Source: a virus
Lineage: Duplodnaviria; Heunggongvirae; Uroviricota; Caudoviricetes
IMG/VR virus record: IMGVR_UViG_3300013800_000001
Location: 22,065-86,064 of that record
Direction: 5' to 3' (one strand)
DNA: 64,000 nucleotides
Translations under genes and position numbers: made by a program
The notes under the pieces: generated by a model
The model's database searches: none
Told to the model about the DNA's origin: nothing
What the model saw: only the letters and a program-made list of their open reading frames with translations
In this document: one piece after another, positions 1,335 through 28,863 of the stretch
Layout: each line of letters begins with the position of its first letter
Numbering within the stretch: the stretch's first letter is position 1

Positions 1335-1340
1335 ATCTTG

Positions 1341-1873: not shown

Positions 1874-1886
1874 AAATGAACTCTGG

Positions 1887-2148: not shown

Positions 2149-2229
2149 TGGAGATAGAGAGAATCGAACTCTCGTCCGATAGAGTGCCCTTTCGGGATTT
2201 AACTACCGTCGAAACCATTGCTTATCCCC
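2149..2229 (-). ncRNA. Atypical tRNA-like element (81 nt): acceptor and T-arm present, no canonical D/anticodon arms, contains a CCC-GAAA-GGG hairpin
   Basis: Acceptor GGGGATA/TATCTCC and T-arm GAGAG-TTCGATT-CTCTC are clear. The internal part folds as GGTTT-(11 nt)-AAATC plus a CCCGAAAGGG GNRA hairpin instead of a 7-nt anticodon loop. Confidence 0.4.
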
Positions 2230-2230
2230 G

Positions 2231-2301
2231 CATAGAAACCTGGATTTGAACCAGGACTAAAGGTTTTGGAGACCTTTGTGCTGCCGTTACACTATTTCCA
2301 C
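2231..2301 (-). tRNA. tRNA-Trp(CCA)
   Basis: Anticodon stem AAGGT/ACCTT with loop CTCCAAA, G73 discriminator, T-arm CCTGG-TTCAAAT-CCAGG. Confidence 0.75.
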
Positions 2302-2431
2302 GTATTGCTTTTGCTTCTCGAAAATCTTTAGACTAAAGAAATCTTTAGCATTCCACCTGTTCTGCCACTTCATTTTATGAGGCTTACAGAGTGCACATGA
2401 TCGCTTTTTCTTTTTTAGTCTCTTTCTCATA

Positions 2432-2611
2432 CTACTTTCTTAACTCTAACTGATTCTCATTGAATATATGTAGCAACCCGTCTTTATGCTCTGCTACTAT
2501 TCTCACATCACCCTTTGTGTTGGTAAAAATAGCTACAATAATCGAGTTGAACTTATATCCACTAACTTTCTTTGCTTTATCGCCTATCTTGAATTTTGAC
2601 TTTATCTTCAT
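2432..2611 (-). CDS. Small hypothetical protein (59 aa, MKIKSKFKIGDKAKKVSGYKFNSIIVAIFTNTKGDVRIVAEHKDGLLHIFNENQLELRK) inside the tRNA array
   Basis: Translated by hand. It is one residue under the ORF-track cutoff. It looks like a KOW/SH3-like small domain and sits in a 330-nt tRNA-free gap. Confidence 0.4.
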   Translation of the reverse strand: MKIKSKFKIGDKAKKVSGYKFNSIIVAIFTNTKGDVRIVAEHKDGLLHIFNENQLELRK

Positions 2612-2630
2612 ATATTTCTTTATTTATCTG

Positions 2631-2704
2631 TAATCCTAGTCGGATTCGAACCGACGATAACCTGTCTGAAAAACAGGGGGCTTGGGCCGCTTGCCTATAG
2701 GATC
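2631..2704 (-). tRNA. tRNA-Glu(TTC)
   Basis: Anticodon stem CCTGT/ACAGG with loop TTTTCAG, T-arm GTCGG-TTCGAAT-CCGAC. Confidence 0.7.
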
Positions 2705-2709
2705 ATCTG

Positions 2710-2792
2710 TGGGAGGAGTTGGATTCGAACCAACAATGTTTCCGTGTCACGGTTTTACAGACCGCTTGCTTCACCAATTTGCATATCCGCCC
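2710..2792 (-). tRNA. tRNA-Tyr(GTA), class II
   Basis: 83 nt. Anticodon loop CTGTAAA, long variable arm, T-arm GTTGG-TTCGAAT-CCAAC. Confidence 0.7.
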
Positions 2793-2900
2793 TTTTGGAA
2801 CCTATTGCTAGGCGGCCTTTCACCCTATTGCGTAATGGGACTTCAGTAACGGATATATACGCTAACCGTTAAACCGAAAATGGCTCTTATTAATATTCTG

Positions 2901-2972
2901 TTGGCTTAACTAGATTCGAACTAGTGACCTTAGGATTAGAAGTCCTGCGCTCTTCCGCTGAGCTATAAGCCA
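2901..2972 (-). tRNA. tRNA-Arg(TCT)
   Basis: Perfect acceptor TGGCTTA/TAAGCCA, anticodon loop CTTCTAA, D-arm GCTCAGCGGAAGAGC. Confidence 0.75.
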
Positions 2973-2973
2973 G

Positions 2974-3047
2974 TAGGTTATGAAGGAGTCGAACCTTCAC
3001 TGTATGCATTTTGAGTGCATTGCGTCTGCCAATTGCGCCAATAACCC
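2974..3047 (-). tRNA. tRNA with Leu anticodon CAA but class-I (74-nt) architecture
   Basis: Anticodon stem TGCAT/ATGCA with loop CTCAAAA. A73. No long variable arm. It abuts its neighbours on both sides, so it cannot be longer. Confidence 0.6.
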
Positions 3048-3048
3048 G

Positions 3049-3120
3049 TAGGCAATGTTGGAATCGAACCAACGACTTGAAGTATATAAGACTTCATTTC
3101 TTCCACTGAATTAATTGCCT
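3049..3120 (-). tRNA. tRNA-Ile(TAT), reads AUA
   Basis: Perfect acceptor AGGCAAT/ATTGCCT, anticodon stem GAAGT/ACTTC with loop CTTATAT. Confidence 0.7.
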
Positions 3121-3213
3121 GTACGCAAGTATTCCCCCTCTATCACGATTACCAATCGGGGTCTTTCGACCTAATCACGATAGCTTCACCCGAATAGGAG
3201 GAATACCTACATG

Positions 3214-3285
3214 TTGGTAAGGAAGGAGTTGAACCTTCGACCTTAGCCGTATCAGGACTCTGCTCTACCGTTGAGCTACTCACCA
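3214..3285 (-). tRNA. tRNA-Ile(GAT)
   Basis: Acceptor TGGTGAG/CTTACCA, D-arm GCTCAACGGTAGAGC, anticodon loop CTGATAC. Confidence 0.65.
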
Positions 3286-3455
3286 ATATGGTCATTAGAT
3301 AGGTAAGGATTTGACGAGATGTGAGGCTGTAAAACCTTCTTTAATCTATCCACAGATAGAGCATTACTCGTATAGTCACCTTACATGGATTTCCTACCAG
3401 TATCTTTATCCCAACTGGTTTCAGGCGTTACTATTCCGCCACTATCTAAATCCCG

Positions 3456-3528
3456 TAGTTCCCCTGGGATTCGAACCCAGACTTTAGACATTTTAAGTGT
3501 CTTGCCTCTGCCGTTGGGCTAGAGAACC
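3456..3528 (-). tRNA. tRNA with Leu anticodon TAA but class-I (73-nt) architecture
   Basis: Anticodon stem AGACA/TGTCT with loop CTTAAAA. A73. Short variable loop. Confidence 0.6.
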
Positions 3529-3626
3529 ATTGCAATACCTTTTAATCCTATGTGCGGGGCCTCGATAATATTTATATCCAACCATGGTAACCTCACAAAA
3601 CACATTAACGGAAAAAAAGGATTTTG

Positions 3627-3707
3627 TGCGTTAGGAGAGACTCGAACTCTCAACCCTTTCGGGCACGGTTTCTAAGACCGCTGTGTAAACCGTTCCACCA
3701 CCAACGC
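3627..3707 (-). tRNA. tRNA-Leu(TAG), class II
   Basis: 81 nt. Anticodon stem GCGGT/ACCGT with loop CTTAGAA. Variable arm is a CCC-GAAA-GGG hairpin. Confidence 0.7.
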
Positions 3708-3749
3708 ATAGACTTATCGACTTATCGGCCATCGACGTATTACCATCTG

Positions 3750-3823
3750 TACGCTCTGAGGGATTTGAACCCCCGACTTTCTGGTTCGAAGCCAGACACT
3801 CTAGTCCACTGAGTTAAGAGCGT
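3750..3823 (-). tRNA. tRNA-Arg(TCG)
   Basis: Perfect acceptor ACGCTCT/AGAGCGT, anticodon stem TCTGG/CCAGA with loop CTTCGAA. Confidence 0.75.
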
Positions 3824-3949
3824 ATGTTCCCAGGCTTTCATTGGTACCTGGAGTGAGCCTGACATTAAGGGGTATAGCCCCGCATCTGACGACGCAACGT
3901 ACAACCACAATCCCGTAGTAAGGAAATGTATTCTAGTTACTTAATTCAC

Positions 3950-4046
3950 TAGTGGGGAGGAGCGCAAAGTATTACCAGTGACGCCATTCAACAGGGTACT
4001 CTATTACGCATTTCGCCTGAAGGTTTCGTAATCCCTCCCCCCCACT
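3950..4046. other. Structured spacer element: G-run (GTGGGGAGG) pairs with a C-run (CCTCCCCCCAC) about 80 nt away, enclosing repeated CGTAAT/ATTACG motifs
   Basis: It lies in the longest (about 235 nt) tRNA-free spacer of the array. No cloverleaf fits. Confidence 0.3.
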
Positions 4047-4058
4047 AAAGAACTATTG

Positions 4059-4129
4059 AGCACGATACTGGAATCGAACCAGTATATCAGGGTTTGCAAT
4101 CCTGCACCTAGCCTTTCGGTCAACCGTGC
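4059..4129 (-). tRNA. tRNA-Cys(GCA)
   Basis: Anticodon loop TTGCAAA. U73 discriminator, the Cys identity element. Confidence 0.7.
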
Positions 4130-4151
4130 TTATTTTAAAATAACTTCTTTG

Positions 4152-4225
4152 TAGTCCGTGTAGGACTTGAACCTACAACCTTCGGTATGTAACACCGTTG
4201 CTCTAGCCAATTGAGCTAACAGACC
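4152..4225 (-). tRNA. tRNA-Val(TAC)
   Basis: D-arm GCTCAATTGGCTAGAGC, anticodon loop GTTACAT, T-arm GTAGG-TTCAAGT-CCTAC. Confidence 0.7.
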
Positions 4226-4407
4226 AAATCAGGCAGGAGGGCGGCAATCCCCATCATGACTTACAGTGGGAGGGCTGTATAAGTCCCGCAGTAGAGCCTT
4301 TCTGCATTTCAACCTGGAGCGTCGTCAGGGTAACGATCCCTGTCCTTCGGTTTGGAAAACCACTATGCGTCCATGAACACCTACAACGCTTATTTTTCTA
4401 TCTTGGG

Positions 4408-4481
4408 AGCCTCCACGAGGATTCGAACCCCGGACCTACGCATTACAAGTGCGCCGCTCTGGCCAACTGAGCTATAAAGGC
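4408..4481 (-). tRNA. tRNA-Thr(TGT)
   Basis: Anticodon stem GCGCA/TGCGT with loop CTTGTAA, D-arm GCTCAGTTGGCCAGAGC. Confidence 0.7.
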
Positions 4482-4602
4482 TTATTACTAGAAATCATGG
4501 TTATCAATATGCCGTATTAGAGTTACTGATTACCATGAGCTGTGCCTACACTGGCTGGCAAGGCACTCGGTAGGGCTTCGGAATATGATCATCTCTTCCT
4601 TG

Positions 4603-4675
4603 TTGCGATAGTGAGAATCGAACTCACGTACTCCTGCTTATGAGACAGGCCTGGGGCCACTCCAGATATATCGCT
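4603..4675 (-). tRNA. tRNA with CAT anticodon (elongator Met or Ile2-lysidine type). Position 1-72 is an A-A mismatch.
   Basis: Anticodon loop CTCATAA. It lacks the three G-C pairs of initiator tRNAs. Confidence 0.65.
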
Positions 4676-4861
4676 ATATGATGTGGGCGCCTCGACCGAG
4701 GACACACATCGACTTTATCTATCCCATAAGCTGGGCTACCAACAAAACTCCAAAACTAGTATGTGCCCACATTGGCTTCTGTTAGCTAGACAGCAGCGCT
4801 TGAAGACATGGAGTGAATGTTCGTAAACCCCACTTATGAGATAGATTTTAAAATAACTGAG

Positions 4862-4932
4862 TCAGAGTACTAGGAGTTGAACCTAGGCCGAATCCTTCCA
4901 AAGGACTCGTGCTACCGTAACACTTTACTCTG
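4862..4932 (-). tRNA. tRNA-Pro(TGG)
   Basis: Perfect acceptor CAGAGTA/TACTCTG, anticodon loop TTTGGAA. Confidence 0.75.
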
Positions 4933-5015
4933 AGAGACGGATAGTTGTTTTTTCCAAGCAAGCAGCTAGGTAGGGGCTGCGATCCGTCAATGGGGCTTAA
5001 ACGCCGATATACCTG

Positions 5016-5087
5016 TGAGTCAGCCGAGAATTGAACTCGGGCCTGCTCCTTGAGAGGGAGCCGTCTTCGCCACTTGACTACAGACTC
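5016..5087 (-). tRNA. tRNA-Glu(CTC)
   Basis: Anticodon stem GCTCC/GGAGC with loop CTCTCAA, T-arm CCGAG-TTCAATT-CTCGG. Confidence 0.7.
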
Positions 5088-5190
5088 ATTTTTGGAACCA
5101 GACGTTTATAGTCCGGCGGCTCGTCTGACTTACGTGCTATAGGATGTGCACACCCCAACACTGCCGACGATGCTCTTTGATCAATTCCTG

Positions 5191-5261
5191 CGGGACATGC
5201 GAGAATCGAACTCGCACTTACTGGTAGACAACCAGGCGCGCTGCCACTACGCCAATGTCCC
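5191..5261 (-). tRNA. tRNA-Asp(GTC)
   Basis: Perfect acceptor GGGACAT/ATGTCCC. G73. Anticodon loop TTGTCTA. Confidence 0.7.
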
Positions 5262-14594: not shown

Positions 14595-14954
14595 ATGGAA
14601 GCACAAAACATTAATCCAATAGCTGAAGCACTAAAAAAGAAAGAAGAAGAAAAACTAACAGCAAAAACAGGATTAGGAACTCAACAAATAAATCAAATAC
14701 TCTCAGCATCACAACCATTCACCCCAAACTTTGGAATGGTCAATGGAACATCAGTAAAACTAAATATTGAATTCGTAGCCAAGCAAATCAAAACCCTAAG
14801 AAACAATGCTGGAATGACACAAAGATCATTAGCAAAAATAGCTCATGTTTCACAAGGAACAATTGCTAGAGCCGAAAAAGGAAATGCAGAAGTATCATTC
14901 TACACATTCTGCAAAATAGCCACAGCATTAGGAAAGATAATTACATTAACATAA
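14595..14954 (+). CDS. XRE/Cro-type helix-turn-helix transcriptional regulator
   Basis: Segment LRNNAGMTQRSLAKIAHVSQGTIARAEKG matches the XRE HTH pattern. Confidence 0.6.
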   Translation: MEAQNINPIAEALKKKEEEKLTAKTGLGTQQINQILSASQPFTPNFGMVNGTSVKLNIEFVAKQIKTLRNNAGMTQRSLAKIAHVSQGTIARAEKGNAEVSFYTFCKIATALGKIITLT

Positions 14955-14959: not shown

Positions 14960-15382
14960 ATGAGCGTAAGAGGACTCGCAATGGGACAAGAAGGAACTGA
15001 AAAGCGAAAGCCTACAACACCTTCTTACTACCCAAAGTACACACCACCAGCGTATACACCAAAAACGGGAGGATGGGGAGGACAATTACTACCAGAAGTA
15101 GAAGAAACAAACTACTACACACCTAGTAAATATGCCTCAACAGACACAAAACAGATTGACATTCTCATCAGAATACCAATGAAAGATATGATTTCTGTAA
15201 CAGATTTCTACGATCCTAAATATGACTACCAAGCAGCTTCATTAGAAGCAGAAGAAATAGCTTACGACAAGCTAGTAGAACTATTAGGAAAAGAGTTTGA
15301 ATCAAAATACACCAGTACATTCGACACCATGGAAGGAGTAACCTTCTATGAAGTAACAGCATTTCTAGTACCAGTTAAATAA
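14960..15382 (+). CDS. Hypothetical protein (140 aa)
   Basis: ORF track. Confidence 0.55.
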   Translation: MSVRGLAMGQEGTEKRKPTTPSYYPKYTPPAYTPKTGGWGGQLLPEVEETNYYTPSKYASTDTKQIDILIRIPMKDMISVTDFYDPKYDYQAASLEAEEIAYDKLVELLGKEFESKYTSTFDTMEGVTFYEVTAFLVPVK

Positions 15383-15581: not shown

Positions 15582-16880
15582 ATGCCAAAAACAACAACAA
15601 CCAAAGAAGAAGCAGCAAAAGAAGTAGAATACAATGGAATCAAAGTAGAAAAAGGTGACGGACTAAGCCAATTTATCCCAAAATCAGCAAAAAAATACAT
15701 CGACCACGGTAATATTCTAAAAACTCTAGCAATCGGTATTCGTGATGATATGGCAGTGCTACTCATCGGAGAATCAGGAACAGGAAAAACATCAGCTATT
15801 CGTCACATGGCTCAAGAAACCAACAACGGACTCCGTCGTATCAACCTCAACGGTGGCACAACAGCTGATGAACTCGTAGGACGAATGCTTATCAATGATC
15901 AAGGAACATACTGGGTTGATGGAGTACTCACAGAAGCCATGCGATCAGGAGATTGGATTGTTTTTGATGAAATTAACGCAGCACTCCCAGAAGTTCTCTT
16001 TGTGCTTCAATCAGTCATGGATGATGACGGATATCTAGTTCTCACAGAAAAAGATGATAAAGAAATTGTCCACAAACACAAAAACTTCCGCATCTTTGCT
16101 ACCTGTAACCCACCAGAATATGCCGGTACAAAGGAAATGAACAAAGCATTGCTCTCTCGCTTCGGTATCTGTATCAATGCAGAATTCCCTAAGAAAGAAG
16201 TAGAGCTAGAAATCATTGAGCATCACCTAGGAAAATCAGTAGCCGAATCAGAAATGGCTATCAAACTCGTAGATATGGCTAACGAAACACGTACTCAGAA
16301 GCAAAATGGAAAAGCTGAATACGAAATCAACACACGAGATATCTTGAACATCCTAAAGCTCGCACAAACAATGGAACCAATCCAGGCGGTACAAATGGGA
16401 TTTAGCAACAAATTAGAGCCTACAGACTCAAAAGCATTCCAAACATATGCAACTCTTCATGTACCAAGTTCAAGACAGAAAGCAAAAGCTACACGAACAG
16501 CTATGACAGACACAAATGCTTTTGAAATTGGAAAGAAATATATCTTAGATGCTGATATGCAAAAATGCTACTTTGGCCTAGAAAAGTATACAATCTCTGA
16601 ATTTGACGCCCTAAAAAAGAAAGGACTACTAGAAATTGTTACAGAAAAAGACCAAGACAACGGAATCAAAGGAGATGAGTTCAAAGTAACAGCAACATTC
16701 TACGAGAATGAAGTCCAAGCATCAGAAAAAGACCTAGATATGACACAAGCTGGACAGAAAACAGGAAGTGCAATCACCATCACAGCTGGTGCAAACAAAG
16801 GAAAGAAAGCCATCATAATCCATAACCAAGGCATTCAGGATGCAACAGAACTCCTAGCAACAATCTTCCAAATCAGCTAA
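15582..16880 (+). CDS. MoxR/CbbQ-like AAA_5 (dynein-related) ATPase
   Basis: Walker A LLIGESGTGKTS. Walker B WIVFDEINAA. The CNPPE...LLSRF arrangement is typical of the AAA_5 MoxR subfamily. Confidence 0.8.
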   Translation: MPKTTTTKEEAAKEVEYNGIKVEKGDGLSQFIPKSAKKYIDHGNILKTLAIGIRDDMAVLLIGESGTGKTSAIRHMAQETNNGLRRINLNGGTTADELVGRMLINDQGTYWVDGVLTEAMRSGDWIVFDEINAALPEVLFVLQSVMDDDGYLVLTEKDDKEIVHKHKNFRIFATCNPPEYAGTKEMNKALLSRFGICINAEFPKKEVELEIIEHHLGKSVAESEMAIKLVDMANETRTQKQNGKAEYEINTRDILNILKLAQTMEPIQAVQMGFSNKLEPTDSKAFQTYATLHVPSSRQKAKATRTAMTDTNAFEIGKKYILDADMQKCYFGLEKYTISEFDALKKKGLLEIVTEKDQDNGIKGDEFKVTATFYENEVQASEKDLDMTQAGQKTGSAITITAGANKGKKAIIIHNQGIQDATELLATIFQIS

Positions 16881-16892
16881 CAAAAACTCATT

Positions 16893-18419
16893 ATGAAACT
16901 CGTAGAATTCCAAAAAATAGCAGAGATGCTAGCAAAACAGCATAAAATCACAATTCACGAGGGAGAAAAATGGGCAGCTAACATTGAGCAAAGAAAGATA
17001 TTCTATGTAAAAAACGATATCTATAACCTGCCTGAGGATCATATCCTCGGGCTCTTGCTCCATGAGATTGCTCACATCCACTACACAACCGATGTTAAAT
17101 TACCAGAAGAAAACAAAGAATTGCTGCACACAGCCCTAAATATGATCGAAGATATCGCTATCGAACATATAATCGGAGGAGATTATCCTAATGCAGCAGA
17201 AATCCTTAATTCAACAAAAGATGAAGTATTGGACACTCTCGTAAGATTGCTCCCAAAATTAGAACGATCAGTCCATGAAAAAGCCCTTCTCTATGCCGCT
17301 GCTAGATTTGAAGGAAGAGGATACAAAAACGGAATCGAAGATTATGAAGTACTTGGAAACAAAGTAGCAGACATCATGATTCCTAAAAAAGAAGAAATCT
17401 ACAACAGAGAAGAAACAGAAAGTCTCATGCCAATTGTAGACGAAATAGCCAAACTTCTCGTAAAAGAAGCAGGAGAGCCAACAGACAAGGAAAAAGAAGA
17501 AATGATGGGAGAAGAACAGCATGGACAAGCCAATCCGAACGGAAAGGAAAGTCATCAAAAAAAAGCCTGTCACGGAAATCCTGTAAAACAAGAGATAATC
17601 GATGAATTAAAAGCAGGAAATGGCTGGATAAAAGGCATAGCACAAGAACAAAGAATAGAATTCGTCGATGAAATAGCAGAACAATCAGAAAAAATAGGCA
17701 AAGAAATCAGAAATGTCCTAAAAAGAAACAATGCTATGGAATTTGGCGGAAGATATAGAACTGGAAAGCTAAAAACAAAAAGAATCGTTAAAATAGTTGC
17801 ACAAAAAGACAGAAATCCTTTCTCAAGAAGAATTGTCAAAAGCAACCAAAGCTATGCCTTTTCAGTTGTTATCGACGTTTCGGGTTCAATGTTCAATGAC
17901 TACACCGCACCTGGTGAATACGACAAAGGAAGCTATGCCCTATCTAGTATGTATATGCTAGGAGAAGCCCTTAAAAAAGCCTCAATTCAAAGAAGTCTCA
18001 TCATATTCGGAGAAATAGCAGTCAAAATAAATGACATGAACAAAAAAGAAGTAAGATGGGAAGAAATCTGTGATCAAAAGAAACATGATCAAGCAGAATA
18101 TGGAGGAACAGACATCGCCCAAGGAATGGCTAAAGGCATACTAGAACTAGAAAAAACCAGAGCAGAAAGGAAAATACTCATAGTTCTCACAGACGGAAGT
18201 AGCCATAAACCAGACATGGAAAGAGTCCATGAAATAGGAAAAAAAGCAGGAATAGAACAACTAGGAATAACAATATCTCAAAACGACCTACCAATAGAAA
18301 TCATGAATGAAGTCTTCGGAGAAGAAAAAAACACAATCATCAAAGATGTTCAAGACACAAAACTAATTGGTAAGGCATTTATTGATATCCTTAAAAGATC
18401 TGTAAAGAAATCAGTATGA
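16893..18419 (+). CDS. von Willebrand factor A (VWA) domain protein with an N-terminal HExxH motif, partner of the MoxR-like ATPase
   Basis: MIDAS-like VIDVSGSM...TDGS. HEIAH motif near the N-terminus. Classic MoxR-VWA adjacency. Confidence 0.7.
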   Translation: MKLVEFQKIAEMLAKQHKITIHEGEKWAANIEQRKIFYVKNDIYNLPEDHILGLLLHEIAHIHYTTDVKLPEENKELLHTALNMIEDIAIEHIIGGDYPNAAEILNSTKDEVLDTLVRLLPKLERSVHEKALLYAAARFEGRGYKNGIEDYEVLGNKVADIMIPKKEEIYNREETESLMPIVDEIAKLLVKEAGEPTDKEKEEMMGEEQHGQANPNGKESHQKKACHGNPVKQEIIDELKAGNGWIKGIAQEQRIEFVDEIAEQSEKIGKEIRNVLKRNNAMEFGGRYRTGKLKTKRIVKIVAQKDRNPFSRRIVKSNQSYAFSVVIDVSGSMFNDYTAPGEYDKGSYALSSMYMLGEALKKASIQRSLIIFGEIAVKINDMNKKEVRWEEICDQKKHDQAEYGGTDIAQGMAKGILELEKTRAERKILIVLTDGSSHKPDMERVHEIGKKAGIEQLGITISQNDLPIEIMNEVFGEEKNTIIKDVQDTKLIGKAFIDILKRSVKKSV

Positions 18420-18772
18420 AAAACATAGAAAGATTATCCAATCACATCACAAAGAATGGAACTGACGGAATGATGATTCATACAATACCAGGAACAAACA
18501 ATTGGGTAATCTGCCAAAAAATGGAAGAGGATAAATGGATGTTAACTCTTGCAGACCCAATGGGGAATACAACCTACAACCTGGGTACTGTATCAGACAA
18601 AGACCATATTGCACTCTGGGTAGAAATAACCCGCATGGGCATAGAAAACAAAACAAGCCAGATAAAACAGGTCAATGAACTAAAAAGAACCATCCAAAAC
18701 TTCAAAAGAAGAGAATCATATAGGCATAAAAAGCTTATAAAACTAGAAGATAATCCATTAATAAAGCAATAA
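18416..18772 (+). CDS. Hypothetical protein (118 aa)
   Basis: ORF track. Start overlaps the preceding stop. Confidence 0.5.
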   Translation: MKNIERLSNHITKNGTDGMMIHTIPGTNNWVICQKMEEDKWMLTLADPMGNTTYNLGTVSDKDHIALWVEITRMGIENKTSQIKQVNELKRTIQNFKRRESYRHKKLIKLEDNPLIKQ

Positions 18773-18773
18773 T

Positions 18774-19295
18774 ATGCCTAATTGGTGTCTAAACAACCTA
18801 AAAATTGTAGGAGAAGTAAAAGAACTAAAAAAGTTCGAAAAAAAAGTAGATAAAGAAAACTTCTTAGGGAGCTTCATCCCACTTCCAAAAGAATTAGAAG
18901 AAAGACAATCTCCATCAAAAACAACCAATACAGTCAATCCAACAAAAGAAGACCTAAAAGAAAACATTGAGAAAAATAGACTAAAAAAACTATATGGATC
19001 TGATAATTGGTATGATTGGTCAATAAAGAACTGGGGAACAAAATGGGATATGAACGAAGTATGCCGAGATGATGATGAAGAACTAGATGCTTATGAAGAA
19101 GATGAACAAGAAGAAGTACTAGAAATACAATATGCATTCTCTAGCCCATGGTCTCCACCAATAAAAGGACTAGAATCCATATCAAAACTATTTCCAAATC
19201 TCACATTTCATCTAGATTATTCAGAAGATGGAATGGGATACAGAGGAATATCCAGATTCCAAGACGGAAATACAGAAGATTATTGTATAGACTAA
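18774..19295 (+). CDS. Hypothetical protein (173 aa) with an acidic middle segment
   Basis: ORF track. Confidence 0.55.
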   Translation: MPNWCLNNLKIVGEVKELKKFEKKVDKENFLGSFIPLPKELEERQSPSKTTNTVNPTKEDLKENIEKNRLKKLYGSDNWYDWSIKNWGTKWDMNEVCRDDDEELDAYEEDEQEEVLEIQYAFSSPWSPPIKGLESISKLFPNLTFHLDYSEDGMGYRGISRFQDGNTEDYCID

Positions 19296-19315: not shown

Positions 19316-19347
19316 TTAACCCTGCCTACAAGCAGGGTTTTTTTATT
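19316..19347 (+). terminator. Rho-independent terminator ending the plus-strand early block
   Basis: AACCCTGC-ctacaa-GCAGGGTT followed by TTTTTTATT. Confidence 0.65.
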
Positions 19348-19557: not shown

Positions 19558-21294
19558 TTATTTCTGCCAGTAATTATTCTCAGATCCTGAATCGCTTGAC
19601 GAATCAGCAGTGTTCTTTGATGCGTCATAGTAATATCTACCGAAAACAAAATCAAAAGTAGCATTAACAGAAATACCCGTCTTACGGTTCTTAACTAACC
19701 AAAGTTTTGCTTGGTTTGTAGGAAGACCATAATCATCTTTTTCTCTCCCAATAAAAAACACTGTATCTGCCTCCTGCGCAATTCCTAAAGAATCTCTAAT
19801 ATCATTCAAATCTGGGTTTTTTGAAGCAGTTTTTCGTACATGAACTGGAAGCATGATAATCAAGCCATGCTTTACGGCTAGTTTTTTCAAAGCTCGAACA
19901 GTATGTGTCACAGAATCAGCTGCGTTAGAGTAATTTCCCTTTGGAGCTCTCAAGAAACCTAAATGATCAATACAAACGACTTTTATTCCCCATTTCAAAA
20001 TGGCCTTTTCAATCACCTGAATCACCCACTCGATATCACCCGTCTCATTGAATCGTGGCATGTATACAGGCGTGTTCAAATCAGCCCCCATTCCCATAAA
20101 CTTCTGCCAAAGCGGTTTTGCCAGAACTTCGTAAGAAAACCACAAAGAGGGCAGTTTTTCATATTGTTCTTGGTTTCCGGTTGAAAGAGTCACTGACCAA
20201 TCTTGAATCAGGGTTGTTTTTCCATGTCCGGATTGACCCGCCACAACGATAAGCTCACCGGCGGAAAAACCGCCTAACAAAGCATCATCAAAAGGCAACA
20301 TTCCTAAAGAATATGTATGATCCGAATCAATAGTTTGCAACTGAGCTACTTCTGACGCGTGAAGCGTTTCTTGTGAATCTTCAGCCTTTTCTTCTTCATC
20401 GTCGCTCAGAGAATCATTGTATTTTCTAGGCGCACTTGAATCGATAGGTGGTTTTTCTGGAGCTGGTCCCCAAGTTTTTGTAGATTGACCTCCCGTAAAA
20501 GTCCTTCCATTTGGATTTTGCGTTTGTTCTCGCTCACTTATCGAATTCCAAATAACTCGTAATTCATAAGAACTCAACGGCGGAATATTTTTTTGGTTAG
20601 CATTCTCAAACATCTGCCAGCCGATTGTCCCCCAAAGACTCGGATGCAGTTTCGCATGAACTTTTCCAGCAAATTTTGTCATCGAATCGTTACGACCACC
20701 TTCACCAACTCCATCATATTCCAAACCGTCTCCATCAACCTTCGGATAAATACTTGTTTCAACAGCAGTCGCAGACCACGGTAGAATATCGCTAGGGCTC
20801 ATTTTTGGTGCCTGGAAGAGTTTTTTCGTAGCATCTGGCATCTGCATATTACTCGCCTCGTAAATCACGCTGTAAGACCCTTTTTGTGTTTTGGAAAAAG
20901 GCGCCACAACATACCCACCTTCTGACCGAACATCGACGCTTGGAAGTATACGAACGGCGTTTTTGAAATCTTTATCGTATTGGAAATAGTAATGTCTACC
21001 GCCTCCACCAGTCGCTACAGTAAAAGTTTTATCTTTGATAAGGGAAAAATCGCCATCTGACTCAACATCAATGACCGTCAAATTAGAAATAGCTCCAGTC
21101 ACAATACCAATCTGGGCATCAGGATAAATCGTCCACCAATTCACCAATTCTTCAGGAGTGGCCTTTCTAGATTGAAATTCTTTCCAAGAAATCAAAGGTC
21201 GCTTATCAAGCCCAACAGGAATCACTGAATAACCCTTCAGCAACAGAAACGTCATGGCGATATTTAGCATTGATGTGTCTTTTTTTTCGCTCAT
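19558..21294 (-). CDS. Bifunctional primase-polymerase (Prim-Pol N-terminus) fused to a DnaB/RecA-fold replicative helicase
   Basis: N-terminal Prim-Pol-like segment (LLKGYSVIPVGLDKRPLISWKEF...VIDVESDGD). C-terminal Walker A GQSGHGKTTL and helicase C-terminal-like region. Confidence 0.75.
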   Translation of the reverse strand: MSEKKDTSMLNIAMTFLLLKGYSVIPVGLDKRPLISWKEFQSRKATPEELVNWWTIYPDAQIGIVTGAISNLTVIDVESDGDFSLIKDKTFTVATGGGGRHYYFQYDKDFKNAVRILPSVDVRSEGGYVVAPFSKTQKGSYSVIYEASNMQMPDATKKLFQAPKMSPSDILPWSATAVETSIYPKVDGDGLEYDGVGEGGRNDSMTKFAGKVHAKLHPSLWGTIGWQMFENANQKNIPPLSSYELRVIWNSISEREQTQNPNGRTFTGGQSTKTWGPAPEKPPIDSSAPRKYNDSLSDDEEEKAEDSQETLHASEVAQLQTIDSDHTYSLGMLPFDDALLGGFSAGELIVVAGQSGHGKTTLIQDWSVTLSTGNQEQYEKLPSLWFSYEVLAKPLWQKFMGMGADLNTPVYMPRFNETGDIEWVIQVIEKAILKWGIKVVCIDHLGFLRAPKGNYSNAADSVTHTVRALKKLAVKHGLIIMLPVHVRKTASKNPDLNDIRDSLGIAQEADTVFFIGREKDDYGLPTNQAKLWLVKNRKTGISVNATFDFVFGRYYYDASKNTADSSSDSGSENNYWQK

Positions 21295-21998
21295 ACGCTT
21301 GTTTTTTCAGCTCTTTTATCAACATCCTCAAATCTCACCAACTTGCAATATCCTAATAATCGGGAAGCAATTCGTTCACCAAAATGTGCCTTAAAATCCT
21401 CTGGTTTTACGTTTGTAGTAAGCAAAAACGGCATATAAGAGTTAAGTCTTTTTTCTAGAAATATCATAAACTTATCAATTTCAAAGTCAGTTAATTTCGT
21501 AGAAGACAAATCATCTAAAAATAACATTCCGTCGTACATTCCTGAACCATTCGTAATTTTGTCCCACGTAGAACTCATTTCTTCAAAAGCATTTCCACTG
21601 GAAAACTCTGTCCTTAGGTTTGAAACGACCTCTGGGTAACTAGCCATATAAGCCACCATCTCTGGGTTTTGCTCGATCAAAAATCTCATAACCGCATATC
21701 CAGCATGTGTTTTACCGCTACCTGCTGGGCCATAAAATATCAATCCAACAATCTTGTTTTTATCAGGTGAAGCAAAAACATCAGCCAAACCCTCGGTGAT
21801 ATTTTTTGTTACATACCCAAGCTCGCTCATCGTGGCATCAGCAAAACGCTCAGGTATCCTGGATTGAACCAGCTCCCGTTTCTTATCCCAAATACCATCA
21901 ACAACCGCTGTGCATAATTCAATCGGTCGTCCTGGATTGTCACGAAACATACGTTCAATCCTCTGGTCTCGTGTTTCAAATAAATAAGATGATGCCAT
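21291..21998 (-). CDS. DnaC/IstB-like AAA+ helicase loader
   Basis: Walker A FYGPAGSGKTH. Walker B MLFLDDL. The size and adjacency to the helicase fit DnaC. Confidence 0.7.
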   Translation of the reverse strand: MASSYLFETRDQRIERMFRDNPGRPIELCTAVVDGIWDKKRELVQSRIPERFADATMSELGYVTKNITEGLADVFASPDKNKIVGLIFYGPAGSGKTHAGYAVMRFLIEQNPEMVAYMASYPEVVSNLRTEFSSGNAFEEMSSTWDKITNGSGMYDGMLFLDDLSSTKLTDFEIDKFMIFLEKRLNSYMPFLLTTNVKPEDFKAHFGERIASRLLGYCKLVRFEDVDKRAEKTSV

Positions 21999-22004
21999 AT
22001 ATTT

Positions 22005-23099
22005 TTATTCTTGATTTTTCAATGCTTCTTGTTCTTTTTCCCATTCTTGCTTAGCAATTCTTGACTCTTCCTCCGCTTTGTCGATGATCGCCTGATATTG
22101 CTTATCTCGAACATCTGACTCTTCCTGGGTGCTGATAGATTTCTGGGCATACAAACCGCCTGACGATTTGGATACGTAGGCTTCAACCTTCGCCAGTTTG
22201 AAAGTGCAGAACTCATACACCGTTCCAACACTCGGTCGGTATGGGTCAGTTTTTCCAGCGTCGTATTTTTGAATCAGAATATTTAACTCTGCAAGTGAAT
22301 ATCTCTCCAGGAGGGCATCGACTGCTTCACGGGTCGGTTTGCGAGCATACGGGTTACTTTTCTTACTAGCAAAATCACCTGGGAATATTTCTTTGAATAA
22401 TCCGATAGCCGCATTTGTAACATTGCCAGTTTTGTCTTCTTCAACCAAAAGGGTAAACTCTTCATCAGTTTTCTTTTTCTTATCGTTTTTTTTACCCGAA
22501 GGGTAAACACTACTGCTATTGTCTACTGCTATGTCTACTGCTACTGTCTTATTAGATGGTTCTATTGTGGGACTCAGATGGTTCATATTCGGGACACTGA
22601 TGTCTGGATTGTGAACCATCTCTGTCCCATTTTTGACACTTCTGGATGGTTCACTTTTGACACTTCTAATTGGATGGTTCACTTTTGACACTTCTCTATC
22701 CTTTTTATCGCTAGAGAGATGTGTCATATTTGAGTCATCTGTATCCACTGAATCGGTAGAGAGATGTGTCATATTTGAGTCATCACTCGACTTCTTATTA
22801 AACCTTTTTTTAGCTTTCGTAATTACGATACAGCTACCGTATGGAGTGCGAAGTGTGGTGATGTACCCCCCAGATTTTAGAGTCTCTAGCCAACGGAAAT
22901 ATGTTGAACGTGAAATGCCTAAATCCTCTTTTACGTCCTCATATTTGATTGGCTTACCCCCCAAAACCTTCCCTTTTTCACTTGTAATTGTAGTGACTTT
23001 ATCTATGAACCACATAAAAAGCCAAACAGCATCGCCCATCTGCTTGCAATGTCTTGAATCTAAAAGATTGTTTGATACTTCAATATAGAATCCTTTCAT
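22005..23099 (-). CDS. Replication initiator / replisome organiser (N-terminal winged-helix, DnaD-like C-terminus) with internal iteron-like repeats
   Basis: N-terminal HTH-like region. Repeated peptides DDSNMTHLS. It sits upstream of the loader and helicase, like lambda O-P or DnaD-DnaC arrangements. Confidence 0.6.
   Translation of the reverse strand: MKGFYIEVSNNLLDSRHCKQMGDAVWLFMWFIDKVTTITSEKGKVLGGKPIKYEDVKEDLGISRSTYFRWLETLKSGGYITTLRTPYGSCIVITKAKKRFNKKSSDDSNMTHLSTDSVDTDDSNMTHLSSDKKDREVSKVNHPIRSVKSEPSRSVKNGTEMVHNPDISVPNMNHLSPTIEPSNKTVAVDIAVDNSSSVYPSGKKNDKKKKTDEEFTLLVEEDKTGNVTNAAIGLFKEIFPGDFASKKSNPYARKPTREAVDALLERYSLAELNILIQKYDAGKTDPYRPSVGTVYEFCTFKLAKVEAYVSKSSGGLYAQKSISTQEESDVRDKQYQAIIDKAEEESRIAKQEWEKEQEALKNQE
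22515..22790. repeat. Iteron-like tandem direct repeats inside the initiator gene (candidate origin of replication)
   Basis: TCTACTGCTA(T)G x3. TGGATGGTTCACTTTTGACACTTCT x2 plus a partial copy and an inverted GTGAACCATC. TAGAGAGATGTGTCATATTTGAGTCATC x2. Confidence 0.55.
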
Positions 23100-26040: not shown

Positions 26041-27162
26041 ATGGAAAATAGCACTACACCAAGAAAGGAGCCATATATAGAAAAGGATGATTTAGCCTTT
26101 TTTAATGGGGTTATTGAAGATTTCTTAGGGCAAAGAACAACCATTGTAATGCTTCCATTTTCCTTAAAGTCTATAGAAGGTTTTGAAGGAGATGATATGT
26201 GGAATGAGCTAAAGAAGCAAGCAGTTATCTATTATAGAGATGTAAAAGAAGAGCTTCCTAGCAACTCAAAACCACAGGATTATAACAGAGTAGGAGCTGC
26301 ATCAATCTCTGGGTATGAGGGTATCGTTAATATGGCAGAAAGGATTACATCTATCGTAGATGAGGTAGTTGAAGAAGAAGAAGAAATAAAAGTATTTGAC
26401 AATGCCTTTGACAAAATTGTCCTCCCTAAAGGATTTAAGGAAAAGATAATAGAAGTGACCTCACAGTTGAAGGAAAGCAAGAAGATATTCGAAGAATGGG
26501 GATTGAATGACAAGATTAAAAAAGGAAAAGGAGTCAATTTGTTATTCAGTGGAGAGTCAGGAACAGGAAAGACTTATTGCGGAGAAGTGATTGCTGAATA
26601 CCTAGGGACAAAAGCAGAGATTATCTCTGTGTCAGATATTGAAGATAAGTACGTAGGACAGTCAGAAAGGAACGTCAGTGGAATATTCAAAAGGCTAAAA
26701 GGAGGCAGTGTGGTCCTTATTCTAGATGAAGTAGATAGTTGGTTAAGCTCACGAAGCGGGTCAAAACAACACCATGAGAACAAGCTCACGAACCAGTTCT
26801 TAATTGAACTAGAGCGTCATAATGGTATCGTTGTTATGACTACCAACCGTCCAGTGAAGCTAGATAAGGCTCTACAGCGCCGAATTGACCTTAATATGCA
26901 CTTCCCGTTTCCGAATCAAGAAGCTAGAAAAAAGATTTGGGAATATATAATCCCAGAAAAGATGCCTAAAGATGGAGAGATTGACTTCGATAAAATATCA
27001 GAGGCTAGACTCAATGGAGGTAACATCAAGAATGCCATTCTCACGGCAGCCAGAAAGATGGTGATAAAAGATGTAAAGCTCACTACAGATATTATTCTAG
27101 AGTCAGTTAAAGAAGAAGTCGCAGAAATAGAACAAGTCGCTAATTCGAAAGATCATTCATAG
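26041..27162 (+). CDS. Classical AAA family ATPase (FtsH/Vps4-type ATPase domain) with a unique N-terminal region
   Basis: Walker A SGESGTGKT. Walker B LILDEVDS. Second region of homology (SRH) TTNRPVKLDKALQRRID. Confidence 0.8.
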   Translation: MENSTTPRKEPYIEKDDLAFFNGVIEDFLGQRTTIVMLPFSLKSIEGFEGDDMWNELKKQAVIYYRDVKEELPSNSKPQDYNRVGAASISGYEGIVNMAERITSIVDEVVEEEEEIKVFDNAFDKIVLPKGFKEKIIEVTSQLKESKKIFEEWGLNDKIKKGKGVNLLFSGESGTGKTYCGEVIAEYLGTKAEIISVSDIEDKYVGQSERNVSGIFKRLKGGSVVLILDEVDSWLSSRSGSKQHHENKLTNQFLIELERHNGIVVMTTNRPVKLDKALQRRIDLNMHFPFPNQEARKKIWEYIIPEKMPKDGEIDFDKISEARLNGGNIKNAILTAARKMVIKDVKLTTDIILESVKEEVAEIEQVANSKDHS

Positions 27163-27165: not shown

Positions 27166-28863
27166 ATGAAAATAATCGCTGAAAAAACTAAATACCATCG
27201 TTTTGCCTTTTATTACGACTATTCTCCAGAAAGGGTTGAATTTTGCCGAAGCTTGAAAGAATCTTTTGGATGGGCAAAGTTCTCTTTTGAAACGGAAGGC
27301 GAATTAAAGAGATGGCTTTTCAGCGACTCGTTGTTTATTCCTGTTATCAAAGAACGGTTTCCAGAAGTACAGATAGACGAACAGGTTGAACAATTAGTAA
27401 TGCAAGAGCAGAAGTGGGCCAATGAGCTTATAAAGCAAGAGAAAAAGATAGATGAAATCAGAAAGAAAGTAGACACCAGATTTGACGTAAGAGGCCTGAA
27501 ACGGGACCTGTATGCTTACCAAAAGGTAGGAGTAGAGTTTCTTACAGCCTCTGGTGGTAGAGCCATCATTGCTGATGCTCCTGGCCTCGGTAAGACAGCT
27601 CAATCTTTGGCTTTTATTAAGCATTCTAAGTTCAAAAGAACGCTTATTGTTTGTCCTGCTTCTGTAAAATTCTCTTGGCAGAATGAAGTGTCTAAGTGGA
27701 CAAATCTATCATCTGTAGTGATTGACAGCAAAACTGATCTATCAAGTGTTGATACTGATGTGAACGTGTGGATTATCAATTATGACATCCTCAAAAAGCA
27801 TTACGGTCAGTTATCTAAAATACGTTTCGATTGCATGGTAGGAGACGAAGTGCAAATGATTAAAAGTACAAATGCCCTTAGGACAAAGGCTTTCCGATCA
27901 ATATCTCGTGACATTAAGTCTGTGGTATTGCTTTCTGGAACGCCATTGCTCTCAAGACCATCTGAACTATTCTCCCTTCTAAACATTGTAGACCCTAATA
28001 CATGGAATAACTGGTATGATTTCGCTCGTAGATATTGCGCTATGAAACAAACACACTGGGGAATGGATACGTCTGGTGCATCTAACATTGAAGAGCTACA
28101 CGCTCGTATCAAGCGTTATTTCATCCGCCGAGATAAGTCTCAGGTGCTCAAAGAGCTCCCTCCAAAGACATTTATTACTATTCCGGTTCAGCTAAGCTCT
28201 GAGTACAACAAACAATACAAAGAAGCATCAAAGAACCTCGCTACGTATCTTAGACTTTATGCGGGTAAACAGCCTGCAGATATCGCTAAAGCTATGGCAG
28301 CTGAGAAACTCACTCAGTTGAATGTTCTCCGCCATCTCAATGCTATGGGTAAGGTAAAAGTGGCTATAGAACTGATAGAGTCAATCCTAGAAGCTGGTGA
28401 AAAGGTTCTCATATTCTCTTCATTTGTTGAGCCATTGCTCGAATTGCAGGATAAGTTTTACAGCGAATCAGTGATGATAACTGGACAAACTCCTGTTCAA
28501 GATAGAGGCTTCATTGTTAATTCTTTTCAGAATGATCCAAACGTAAAAGTATTCTTAGGAGGAATCAAGAGTGCTGGTGTGGGTATTACCCTTACAGCCG
28601 CCTCTAATGTTATTTTCCTTGATTATAGCTGGAATCCAGCTGACCATCAGCAGGCTCAAGACCGTGTGCATAGACCAGGGCAAGTAGCTAATTCTGTGAA
28701 TATCTATCAGCTAACTGCTATTGATACGATAGATGAAGACTTGAAAGAAACGCTTGACCGAAAACAGGGCATATTTGACCAGGTTATAGAAGGAAAGAGG
28801 GCTGTTAAGAAAGAAAAGAACGCCATGGACTCAGCTGTGCAGCGTGTGCTGGATAATTACTAA
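27166..28863 (+). CDS. SNF2-family (Swi2/Snf2) helicase
   Basis: Motifs LYAYQKVGVEFL, ADAPGLGKT, DEVQMIK, and helicase C-terminal QDRVHRPGQ. Confidence 0.85.
   Translation: MKIIAEKTKYHRFAFYYDYSPERVEFCRSLKESFGWAKFSFETEGELKRWLFSDSLFIPVIKERFPEVQIDEQVEQLVMQEQKWANELIKQEKKIDEIRKKVDTRFDVRGLKRDLYAYQKVGVEFLTASGGRAIIADAPGLGKTAQSLAFIKHSKFKRTLIVCPASVKFSWQNEVSKWTNLSSVVIDSKTDLSSVDTDVNVWIINYDILKKHYGQLSKIRFDCMVGDEVQMIKSTNALRTKAFRSISRDIKSVVLLSGTPLLSRPSELFSLLNIVDPNTWNNWYDFARRYCAMKQTHWGMDTSGASNIEELHARIKRYFIRRDKSQVLKELPPKTFITIPVQLSSEYNKQYKEASKNLATYLRLYAGKQPADIAKAMAAEKLTQLNVLRHLNAMGKVKVAIELIESILEAGEKVLIFSSFVEPLLELQDKFYSESVMITGQTPVQDRGFIVNSFQNDPNVKVFLGGIKSAGVGITLTAASNVIFLDYSWNPADHQQAQDRVHRPGQVANSVNIYQLTAIDTIDEDLKETLDRKQGIFDQVIEGKRAVKKEKNAMDSAVQRVLDNY

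Follow-up and report, generated by a model that had tools for sequence, protein, structure and literature searches.

Two adjacent genes of an uncultivated tailed phage of about 99-100 kb encode a MoxR-type ATPase and a protein with a VWA domain, and the question they raise is what such a pair does for the virus that carries it. Both lie on the plus strand of the 64,000-nucleotide stretch that was analysed (the window), the ATPase ORF at 15582-16880 and the VWA ORF at 16893-18419, with a gap of 12 nt between them. The initial annotation took them for a MoxR-VWA pair of the CbbQ/O and NorQ/D class, and profile, structural and comparative evidence agree with that assignment. It overlooked that the pair is the already described viral "cobST", or MoxR plus metallopeptidase-vWA, pair. 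The cobST-type MoxR-VWA cluster is widespread in tailed viruses (PMC8651126, PMC7824862). It is among their most widespread accessory gene pairs, being core in T4-like cyanophages and found also in pelagiphages, rhizobiophages, actinophages, SSU5-like phage-plasmids and haloviruses. Two incompatible proposals have been made for it, more B12 synthesis and virion assembly, and we found no experiments on any viral cobST pair in the literature searched.

The ATPase (432 aa) is of the MoxR/CobS type, with a large AAA+ subdomain at residues 59-199 and a helical small subdomain at residues 205-293. Its AAA_5 signature, noticed in the initial annotation, was borne out by Pfam (106.7 bits against a cut-off of 22, E=1.3e-30, residues 59-194), and the protein matched phrog_249 with E=2.9e-51. 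A profile search against PDB matched Midasin (1e-122, summed over six modules), CobS (4.5e-29 over residues 17-280), CbbQ and NorQ. The translations of Walker A (GESGTGKT, 15768-15791) and Walker B (WIVFDEINA, 15954-15980) were checked. Both motifs are invariant in 37 homologs, as are the sensor-1 residue N176 (within 16089-16115), the arginine finger R193 (within 16146-16163) and the sensor-2 arginine R252 (within 16323-16340). GESGTGKT, DEIN, N176, R193 and R252 correspond to G71-S78, D141-E142, N186, R210 and R271 of Brucella CobS. As read from its sequence, the AAA_5 active site is intact. The AF2 model (mean pLDDT 82) contains hairpin inserts at residues 100-105/108-113 and 151-153/162-164 (overall 100-113 and 151-164), which, as modelled, are the helix-2 insert and the pre-sensor-1 insert typical of the CobS-CbbQ-NorQ-Midasin clade. 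The score with the GvpN model (85.1) did not reach its cut-off of 266.8.

Residues ~300-432 of the ATPase (16479-16877) are predicted to fold into an extra C-terminal alpha/beta domain (pLDDT 78-93). This domain of ~130 aa is conserved in the full-length homologs and is specific to the lineage studied. Viral MoxR/CobS models cover just 258-351 of the 432 ATPase columns, and Brucella CobS, with 328 aa, is without the domain. No counterpart of it was found in Pfam, PDB sequences or viral structures, and a KOW match was below threshold.

The adaptor (508 aa) follows the CobT domain plan: a zincin-like N-terminal domain, a disordered acidic linker, a conserved pre-VWA segment and a C-terminal VWA domain. 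The motifs are not a product of chance: over 100 full-length homologs, with identities of 36-78%, were found for each of the two proteins. The charged linker (residues ~206-276, 17508-17720) aligns with many gaps and varies in length among the homologs. Short helices are predicted at residues 230-240 and 259-276, and the rest is largely low-confidence or disordered, with pLDDT 38-54 for residues ~210-250. Its counterpart in CobT is a disordered linker of ~90 residues. The pre-VWA segment, KRNNAMEFGGRYRTGKL..KRIVKIV..PFSRRIVKSNQS (residues 277-320, 17721-17852), is strongly conserved and has a low pLDDT of 55-72. Among PDB sequences it was matched best by the corresponding stretch of the Midasin MIDAS domain (E=2.6e-11). 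Against residues ~371-421 of Brucella CobT, which include the shaft Q373-R413, hhalign gave E=9e-4 with a probability of 23%. In Brucella melitensis, CobS is a ring-forming AAA_5 motor with CobT as its adaptor, and the CobT shaft inserts into the pore of the CobS ring (bioRxiv 10.64898/2026.07.21.739949). By analogy, we infer that the pre-VWA segment is a putative equivalent of the shaft that enters the ATPase ring.

The VWA domain (17853-18401) carries a complete MIDAS, made up of D328-x-S330-x-S332, T406 and T433-D434-G435. Translation was checked for DVSGS (17874-17888, within VIDVSGSM) and for TDGS (18189-18200, of which T433-D434-G435 occupies 18189-18197); T406 lies in 18102-18116. The initial annotation had reported VWA and MIDAS motifs in this protein, and profile searches do support them. 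Pfam VWA matched with 31.5 bits (cut-off 23.8, E=2.5e-7) and VWA_2 with 28.7 bits (cut-off 27), and the MIDAS residues are invariant across 39 diverse adaptor homologs. For the VWA half, the closest matches are NorD and the Rea1/MDN1 MIDAS domains, and the nearest solved relatives of the whole adaptor are NorD, the Midasin MIDAS domains and CobT. Weak DUF58 or BatA similarity was also seen inside the adaptor's own VWA domain.

The N-terminal domain (residues 1-205, 16893-17507) was modelled with pLDDT 85-97 as a helix, a three-stranded sheet and eight helices, the same order of secondary structure as reported for the "M48C-like" CobT_N of Brucella. With hhalign, it matched SSU5 gp049 (residues 55-140, E=7.9e-7) and a "putative peptidase" of Mosig (E=8.7e-7), and the N-terminus of SSU5 gp049 in turn matches Pfam CobT PF06213 at 2.1e-37. 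The sequences thus point to a domain that is homologous to CobT_N through a link that is transitive, via SSU5 gp049, and not direct. The HExxH motif reported in the initial annotation was found in this domain as HEIAH (residues 57-61, 17061-17075, translation checked); that the domain holding it is homologous to the CobT N-terminal domain had been overlooked. Candidate third ligands E86, D87 and E91 lie downstream in NMIEDIAIEHII (17139-17174). H57, E58, H61, E86, D87 and E91 are all invariant across 39 homologs, and of 123 full-length representatives of related superfamily clusters, 122 retain HExxH. In the predicted model, HEIAH falls in helix 48-64 and E86/D87/E91 in helix 75-97, which is a zincin-type arrangement of helices.

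Opposite HEIAH, Brucella CobT has DSMAL in two concordant HMMER alignments, each non-significant. The contrast rests on these weak alignments because hhalign, applied directly to the N-domain profile and an N-terminal fragment of Brucella CobT, gave no significant match (E=0.39). The invariant HExxH and downstream Glu/Asp residues, together with DSMAL in CobT, lead us to infer that the N-domain still binds zinc, and it may cleave a client protein. Because the N-domain of CobT is a docking module, conservation of HExxH could also reflect structure or metal binding without proteolysis. The N-domain profile alone found nothing significant among PDB sequences (best, proabylysin, E=0.45), and none of the curated peptidase models was significant (PhageMetallopep, E=0.024 in 1 of 39 members). 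An identity as a DUF2201_N plus VWA-like (COG3864) protein was considered as well. DUF2201_N gave a sub-threshold match (E=0.0014) in one distant relative; Pfam did not support this identity for the adaptor and its 39 homologs, and the link to CobT_N is the better one.

These features place the pair as a divergent member of the known viral cobST cluster, not as something new in kind. SSU5 gp050/gp049 (Salmonella), RHEph10 gp044/gp043 (Rhizobium), CRP-810 gp06/gp07 (Roseobacter), ChisanaKitsune gp69/gp70 (Gordonia) and Mosig (Pelagibacter) are examples of this cluster, in family phrog_249. In each, as here, the gene next to that of the AAA_5 ATPase encodes a protein that runs from an HExxH N-domain through a charged linker and a pre-VWA segment to a VWA domain with a MIDAS. 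Sequence identity is low, 24-32% by tblastn, and confined to the AAA+ core or the VWA domain. The adaptor here has 508 aa, whereas those of the examples have 605-836 aa, and the ATPase gene comes first here, whereas SSU5, RHEph10 and Mosig have the VWA gene in front. The Pfam models CobT and CobT_C detect the proteins of SSU5, RHEph10 and CRP-810 but not our adaptor: PF06213 had no match at E<=1 for the adaptor or at E<=0.1 for the 39 homologs, and CobT_C PF11775 had none for the adaptor and a weak one in 1 of the 39. Three traits are peculiar to the lineage, namely a Pfam-CobT-negative adaptor, the extra ATPase domain and a coupled 118-aa gene (present in 11 of 13 related loci). It adds a compact, very divergent branch to the cluster, in which the zinc motif, the MIDAS and the putative ring-inserting segment are all invariant. 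A DNA similarity search of 50,697 phage records gave no match, so the phage has no close cultured relative among them.

Outside phages, the Brucella melitensis CobS-CobT-CobN system shares the AAA_5 motor, the M48C-like N-domain, the linker, the MIDAS and, putatively, the pre-VWA shaft. NorQ-NorD and CbbQ-CbbO, the chaperones of the MoxR CGN subfamily for nitric oxide reductase and Rubisco, differ in context, which here is that of a phage with no nor or cbb client genes near the pair. Relatives of the CobT type were the only ones to show the zincin-like N-domain, in a comparison that excluded the N-terminal regions of NorD and CbbO. The strongest sequence matches for both proteins are to Midasin/Rea1 of eukaryotic ribosome assembly, whose MIDAS site grips a client protein by an acidic residue before the client is pulled away. 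Midasin is, however, a single polypeptide of ~4,900 residues with six fused AAA modules, whereas the phage pair is two proteins, and the Midasin MIDAS construct that was matched has no counterpart of the adaptor N-domain. Among viruses, ATV p618/p892 is a comparable pair in which p892 is reported to be without a peptidase domain (PMC7824862).

The surroundings of the pair bear on its role. Upstream on the plus strand are a gene for a 119-aa HTH_3 (XRE-type) regulator (14595-14954; PHROG transcriptional repressor/regulator families, best E=3e-11) and one for a conserved 140-aa protein (14960-15382) that has no match in Pfam or PHROG. Of 13 related loci, 9 have a homolog of the regulator upstream of the ATPase, and 9 have a homolog of the 140-aa protein (28-40% identity) in the same position as here. 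Downstream, a lineage-specific gene for a 118-aa protein (18416-18772, plus strand) overlaps the VWA gene in ATGA, as confirmed by reading the sequence, and by this overlap is translationally coupled to it. In 11 of 13 loci, the gene directly after the VWA gene is a homolog of it (38-56% identity). Pfam and PHROG searches gave no match for the 118-aa protein, and among the 10 relatives found none is named and none has a Pfam domain. The initial annotation had raised the possibility of a DUF58-like third partner; Pfam and PHROG found none among the neighbours, and the conserved third gene is this ORF, whose product is a candidate third component, cofactor or substrate. A gene for a 173-aa protein with a DUF1281_C (Api92-like, ferredoxin-like) domain (18774-19295, plus strand; Pfam PF18406 E=1.8e-11, phrog_12644 E=1.6e-19) is the last of the plus-strand unit and is near the pair in 7 of 13 loci. 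The unit is closed by a bidirectional intrinsic-terminator-like hairpin at 19318-19339, for which a terminator scan gave a stem of 8-9 pairs and a T-run on each strand, and it converges with a primase-helicase/DnaC/DnaD operon on the minus strand (19558-23099).

The pair thus sits in an early/replication region and, as the initial annotation had stated, among small early genes and not structural ones, with the reservation that gene position is weak evidence of expression timing. The same pair was found in related phages, both in related loci and in viral cobST clusters. In all related loci with enough flank, it stands beside an HTH regulator, small early-type genes and replication genes, which ties it to the replication/early module in this lineage. 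We put at roughly 0.55 the probability that the two proteins are a CobS/CobT-type MoxR-VWA motor-adaptor machine, made by the phage with its early and replication genes, that remodels a client protein. In our judgement, the pair is not a cobalt chelatase but a machine that remodels proteins, driven by ATP and targeted through its MIDAS, and it may be a protease as well.

It is unlikely, though still worth weighing, that the pair is instead a virion morphogenesis chaperone with a processing protease. This was proposed for group 2.2 jumbo phages, which encode a MoxR ATPase and a vWA co-chaperone with an N-terminal metallopeptidase domain that were read as morphogenesis machinery (Iyer et al. 2021, PMC7824862). 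By description that architecture is the same as here, although our phage is not jumbo-sized. A deletion in Bacillus phage 0305phi8-36 that removed MoxR and vWA along with tRNAs and other genes left the phage viable with poor growth, which counts in favour of this proposal. The location of our pair speaks against such a role: it is grouped with the HTH regulator, early-type and replication genes, is closed off by a terminator of its own, and is separated by more than 30 kb from the tape-measure/tail region, which is on the opposite strand. The pair is thus outside any tail module, and no structural gene co-varies with it among the 13 related loci. In SSU5, RHEph10 and Hardycor1 the pairs likewise lie in replication/accessory regions.

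A role as a cobalamin auxiliary metabolic gene seems less probable again. In the proposal of Liu et al. 2021 (PMC8651126), viral CobS/CobT replaces or supplements the host subunits and drives host CobN, giving more cobalamin, for example for a B12-dependent ribonucleotide reductase. The domain plan of the adaptor and the CobS match of the ATPase fit this proposal, and so do the annotations of PHROG 249 as "porphyrin biosynthesis" and of JGI as "cobaltochelatase CobS". However, with the NCBIfam CobS equivalog (TIGR01650) the ATPase scored 74.3 bits, far under the cut-off of 558.55, Pfam CobT and CobT_C fail to detect the adaptor, and no CobN-like gene was evident among the large ORFs of the window, though the host might supply a CobN. 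NorD and Midasin are at least as close to the adaptor as CobT is, and the viral family retains the HExxH that Brucella CobT, in weak alignments, appears to be without. Homologous pairs occur, moreover, in phages of Salmonella (SSU5), Vibrio cholerae (ICP2) and Pelagibacter. To our knowledge, these hosts have no aerobic CobN route. Annotation under the names "porphyrin biosynthesis", "CobS" and "CobT" is a problem, since these names suggest a part in metabolism for which the sequence features give no support. By itself, the lineage does not decide between the B12 and virion-assembly proposals.

Least probable is a defence or counter-defence conflict system of the MoxR-vWA ternary type, in which the vWA protein senses an invader or a host defence protein and an effector peptidase is released or activated: MoxR-vWA systems with peptidase effectors have been described as conflict systems (PMC7159879; Kaur et al. 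2020), an early-gene position would fit counter-defence and the ATPase has a weak Pfam bpMoxR match (E=5.7e-4), but this match (19.5 bits) is below the cut-off of 27, Pfam and PHROG found no VMAP, beta-propeller or FtsH third component among the neighbours, the closest relatives are CobS/CobT-type pairs and not bpMoxR systems, and a known defence system was rejected because PADLOC yielded no system match, the ATPase having no more than marginal P-loop hits and the VWA protein none.

The structures of CobST, NorQD and Midasin suggest how a remodelling machine of the CobS/CobT type would work. Six ATPase subunits would form a ring, the adaptor N-domain would dock on the ATPase small subdomain, and on nucleotide binding adaptor residues 277-320 would enter the ring pore. 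The MIDAS site would hold an acidic residue of the client, and ATP hydrolysis would pull or rotate the adaptor so that the client is remodelled. Judging from the invariant HExxH and Glu/Asp residues, the N-domain would keep its zinc and may cut the client. Rather than a corrin ring, this client is most probably a protein, from host or phage, that is important in the early phase of infection (replication, takeover or defence), and the conserved 118-aa protein is a candidate cofactor or substrate of the machine.

More tentatively, viral CobT-like adaptors might be active zinc proteases, and the pair a split AAA+ unfoldase/protease that extracts and cuts a MIDAS-selected protein of early infection. 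Should this be true, the CobT of cobaltochelatase would have descended from such machines and degenerated into a pseudo-peptidase. The 118-aa protein would then be a dedicated substrate, inhibitor or targeting factor, and the client a specific host or phage protein that is taken out of a complex.

As for the host, GTDB matches were limited to short contigs of Nanoarchaeia, Woesearchaeota and Staskawiczbacteria MAGs. We judged these bin assignments to be unreliable, because the phage encodes murein-degrading tail proteins.

The two open reading frames of the initial annotation lie on the + strand at 15582-16880 (432 aa) and 16893-18419 (508 aa), with 12 nt between them. The first was confirmed as an AAA_5 ATPase by Pfam (E=1.3e-30, residues 59-194), and the second as a VWA protein by Pfam VWA and VWA_2 matches over the gathering scores (residues 325-489). 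The motifs quoted for the latter were all found: HEIAH at nt 17061-17075, DVSGS at 17874-17888 and TDGS at 18189-18200. Small genes surround the pair on the + strand and the structural genes are far off; it had been stated that the pair does not lie among structural genes. The same pair recurs in relatives, the ATPase gene being directly 5' of the VWA gene in 12 of 13 related loci, with a remnant of about 70 residues in L016, one of these loci. A DUF58-like third partner, suggested as a check, was not found among the neighbouring genes. Judged from the sequences, the pair is real and under purifying selection. Full-length homologs show both families to be populous and purely metagenomic.

The ATPase has 466 relatives, and the 120 listed are all at least 52% identical to it; an identical copy is recorded on a contig of 99,376 bp. 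Walker A, Walker B, the sensor-1 Asn, R193 and R252 are invariant in an alignment of 37 homologs. Compared with PDB sequences, the family profile matched the six AAA modules of Midasin (summed E=1e-122) and Brucella CobS (E=4.5e-29 across residues 17-280), as well as CbbQ and NorQ. Its PHROGs family is phrog_249, the phage CobS-like family annotated 'porphyrin biosynthesis'. The AF2 model (mean pLDDT 82) predicts two beta-hairpin inserts (100-113 and 151-164) in the large AAA+ subdomain, followed by a small helical subdomain (205-293), for which Pfam gave a sub-threshold CbbQ_C match, and a well-predicted extra alpha/beta domain (residues ~305-431) that the alignment shows to be kept across the family. 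Nothing in Pfam or PDB sequences covers this C-terminal domain, and alignments to viral MoxR/CobS-like structures stop short of it, reaching 258-351 of 432 columns. It is an addition specific to this ATPase lineage.

The VWA protein has 113 relatives (36-75% identity). Alignment of 39 diverse homologs showed H57, E58, H61, E86, D87 and E91 to be invariant, and likewise D328, S330, S332, T406, T433, D434 and G435. Four parts can be told apart in its model (mean pLDDT 85): residues 1-205, with one helix, a three-stranded sheet and eight helices; a charged linker, mostly of low confidence (~206-276); a segment of low confidence that is strongly conserved in the alignment (277-320); and a VWA fold (321-503). 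Brucella CobT has the same domain plan, and its shaft region, the segment just before the VWA domain that enters the ATPase ring pore, aligns with residues 277-320 (hhalign E=9e-4).

Pfam CobT (PF06213) and CobT_C did not detect the VWA protein or its 39 homologs. A tblastn search with the N-terminal 266 residues gave weak matches (E=0.003-8) in phages of Gordonia, Rhizobium, Roseobacter and Pelagibacter and in SSU5-like phages, most of them to genes labelled CobT-like, cobalamin/porphyrin biosynthesis or peptidase, or adjoining a CobS-like ATPase. Profile comparison of the N-domain gave E=7.9e-7 to residues 55-140 of gp049, the CobT-like protein of Salmonella phage SSU5, and E=8.7e-7 to a 'putative peptidase' of Pelagibacter phage Mosig; the motif HExAHxxxT...NxLED.xIE is shared with both. 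Pfam CobT matches the N-terminus of SSU5 gp049 at 2.1e-37 and that of gp07 of Roseobacter phage CRP-810 at 2e-15. The significant profile matches to gp049 and Mosig, together with the Pfam CobT match of gp049, place the VWA protein in the viral CobT-like family, as a highly diverged member. The pair belongs to the known viral cobST or MoxR-(metallopeptidase)vWA kind, and what is new is at the lineage level only: an extreme divergence, by which the VWA protein escapes Pfam CobT models and the PHROG coverage of the CobT N-terminus; a compact 508-aa adaptor; the additional C-terminal domain on the ATPase; and a translationally coupled 118-aa partner. Public labels of the family conflict ('predicted metal-dependent peptidase', 'Mg-chelatase subunit ChlD', 'VWA domain-containing protein', 'cobaltochelatase CobS', 'MoxR-like ATPase'), and relatives in isolated phages are labelled 'porphyrin biosynthesis' and 'CobT-like'. 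Equivalog scores give no support to the metabolic labels.

A phmmer search of the whole library with the N-domain alone yielded 147 cluster representatives, and HExxH followed by a downstream DxSxS was present in 122 of the 123 with a length of 400 aa or more. The C-terminal halves of these proteins match VWA and, weakly, CobT_C in Pfam; their N-domains are mostly without Pfam assignment. In HMMER alignments to Brucella CobT, which agree with each other, HEVAH of SSU5 gp049 and HEAGH of CRP-810 gp07 face DSMAL within a common RG..D context, and the downstream viral LED..IE faces Brucella VEQARVE. HExxH is absent from the visible Brucella CobT N-domain sequence (residues 25-146). On the simplest interpretation, a zincin metal site lost by the chelatase subunit is kept in viral CobT-like proteins; the correspondence of DSMAL to HExxH is provisional because these stretches are individually non-significant and a direct profile test of the N-domain against the Brucella CobT fragment failed. 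Since curated peptidase models gave no significant match to the N-domain, we only infer catalysis. What emerges is a sharper hypothesis, the retention of a zinc site by viral CobT-like adaptors, and cultured relatives offer a test of it.

Neighbouring genes were counted in the 13 independent related loci. Upstream of the ATPase gene on the + strand lies an XRE-type HTH gene (14595-14954), then, directly before the pair, a conserved 140-aa gene; each is found upstream in 9 of the 13. The + strand 118-aa gene has a start codon that overlaps the stop codon of the VWA gene (ATGA); it is directly 3' of the VWA gene in 11 loci, and its product has just 10 relatives, all unannotated. A + strand 173-aa DUF1281_C gene (18774-19295), nearby in 7/13 loci, closes the unit, which ends at a bidirectional terminator-like hairpin (19318-19339). 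The convergent primase-helicase/DnaC-like/DnaD-like operon (19558-23099) recurs in 7/13, those with enough flank. The 173-aa protein matches DUF1281_C (Api92-like, ferredoxin-like; E=1.8e-11) and phrog_12644. In L016 (IMGVR_UViG_3300020047_015793, 1586-3043) the VWA and 118-aa genes are intact and the ATPase is reduced to its last ~70 residues (2819-3040); the rest of its slot is taken by two ORFs, one of 246 aa and a hydrophobic one of 182 aa that probably encodes a membrane protein. Either the motor has recently decayed or been replaced in this relative, or the locus is an assembly chimera. In related elements (L001, 880-3861; L003, 15276-17030), genes for large serine recombinases (Resolvase + Recombinase) and ParB_N and FtsK/SpoIIIE-like genes lie <10 kb from the pair; the recombinase of L001 abuts a ychF GTPase gene. 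The presence of these genes near the pair suggests a temperate or integrative lifestyle for some relatives.

The ATPase active site and the MIDAS and HExxH motifs of the adaptor are intact in sequence, and the two genes are strictly adjacent and co-conserved. By analogy with CobS-CobT, NorQ-NorD and Midasin, the ATPase subunits would assemble as a hexameric ring whose pore is entered by the conserved adaptor segment 277-320. The adaptor N-domain would dock on the ATPase small subdomain, the MIDAS site would grip an acidic residue of a client protein, and ATP-driven movement of the adaptor would remodel that client. The N-domain would further bind zinc and may cleave the client. The client is probably a protein relevant to early infection, because the module sits with regulator and replication genes far from the structural genes and because the pairs of SSU5 and Rhizobium phage RHEph10 adjoin ligase, polymerase or replication genes. 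Less probably, the pair is a virion morphogenesis factor, but gene context does not support this; Iyer et al. (PMC7824862) proposed virion assembly with proteolytic processing for the MoxR-vWA pair of group 2.2 jumbo phages. Such a pair lies in a replication/accessory module of halovirus Hardycor1, and a deletion including the MoxR and vWA genes of phage 0305phi8-36 is viable with a growth defect. Liu et al. (PMC8651126) proposed that viral cobST hijacks host CobN. Action in cobalt chelation with CobN is disfavoured for the present pair, which was rejected as a true cobaltochelatase: the ATPase scored 74 bits against a CobS equivalog cut-off of 558.55, the large ORFs of the window show no evident CobN-like gene, the protease motif is retained, and homologous pairs occur in phages of Salmonella, Vibrio cholerae and Pelagibacter, hosts that are not known to have the aerobic CobN pathway. 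No functional experiments on any viral cobST pair were found in the literature searched.

The window belongs to the genome of a tailed phage. Among its DNA-metabolism genes are those for a helicase, a UvsX-like recombinase and an SbcC-like protein; a tape-measure protein of 1,877 aa and a 923-aa protein that has a cell-wall peptidase domain are encoded on the far side. The transglycosylase end of the tape measure and the L-Ala-D-Glu peptidase domain protein (51583-59991), with the DnaD/DnaC-type loaders, imply a host with murein. Among GTDB species genomes, the pair's family is confined to 8-23 kb contigs (L009, L010 and L011) binned as Nanoarchaeia, Woesearchaeota and Staskawiczbacteria; Izemoplasmatales are also among the NCBI names of homologs. 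The archaeal assignments probably arose from faulty binning. A dense − strand array (134-5261) has 26 tRNA genes for 19 amino acids and lacks a glycine tRNA. A gap in it contains an 84-nt Rfam 'tmRNA' match (2146-2229; 60 bits, over gathering), where ARAGORN calls neither tRNA nor tmRNA; possibly this is a tRNA-like gene that is degenerate or unusual. A second, unrelated AAA+ ATPase (26041-27162, 373 aa; phrog_10401/phrog_3757, E about 1e-43) is followed directly by a large helicase gene (27166-28863).
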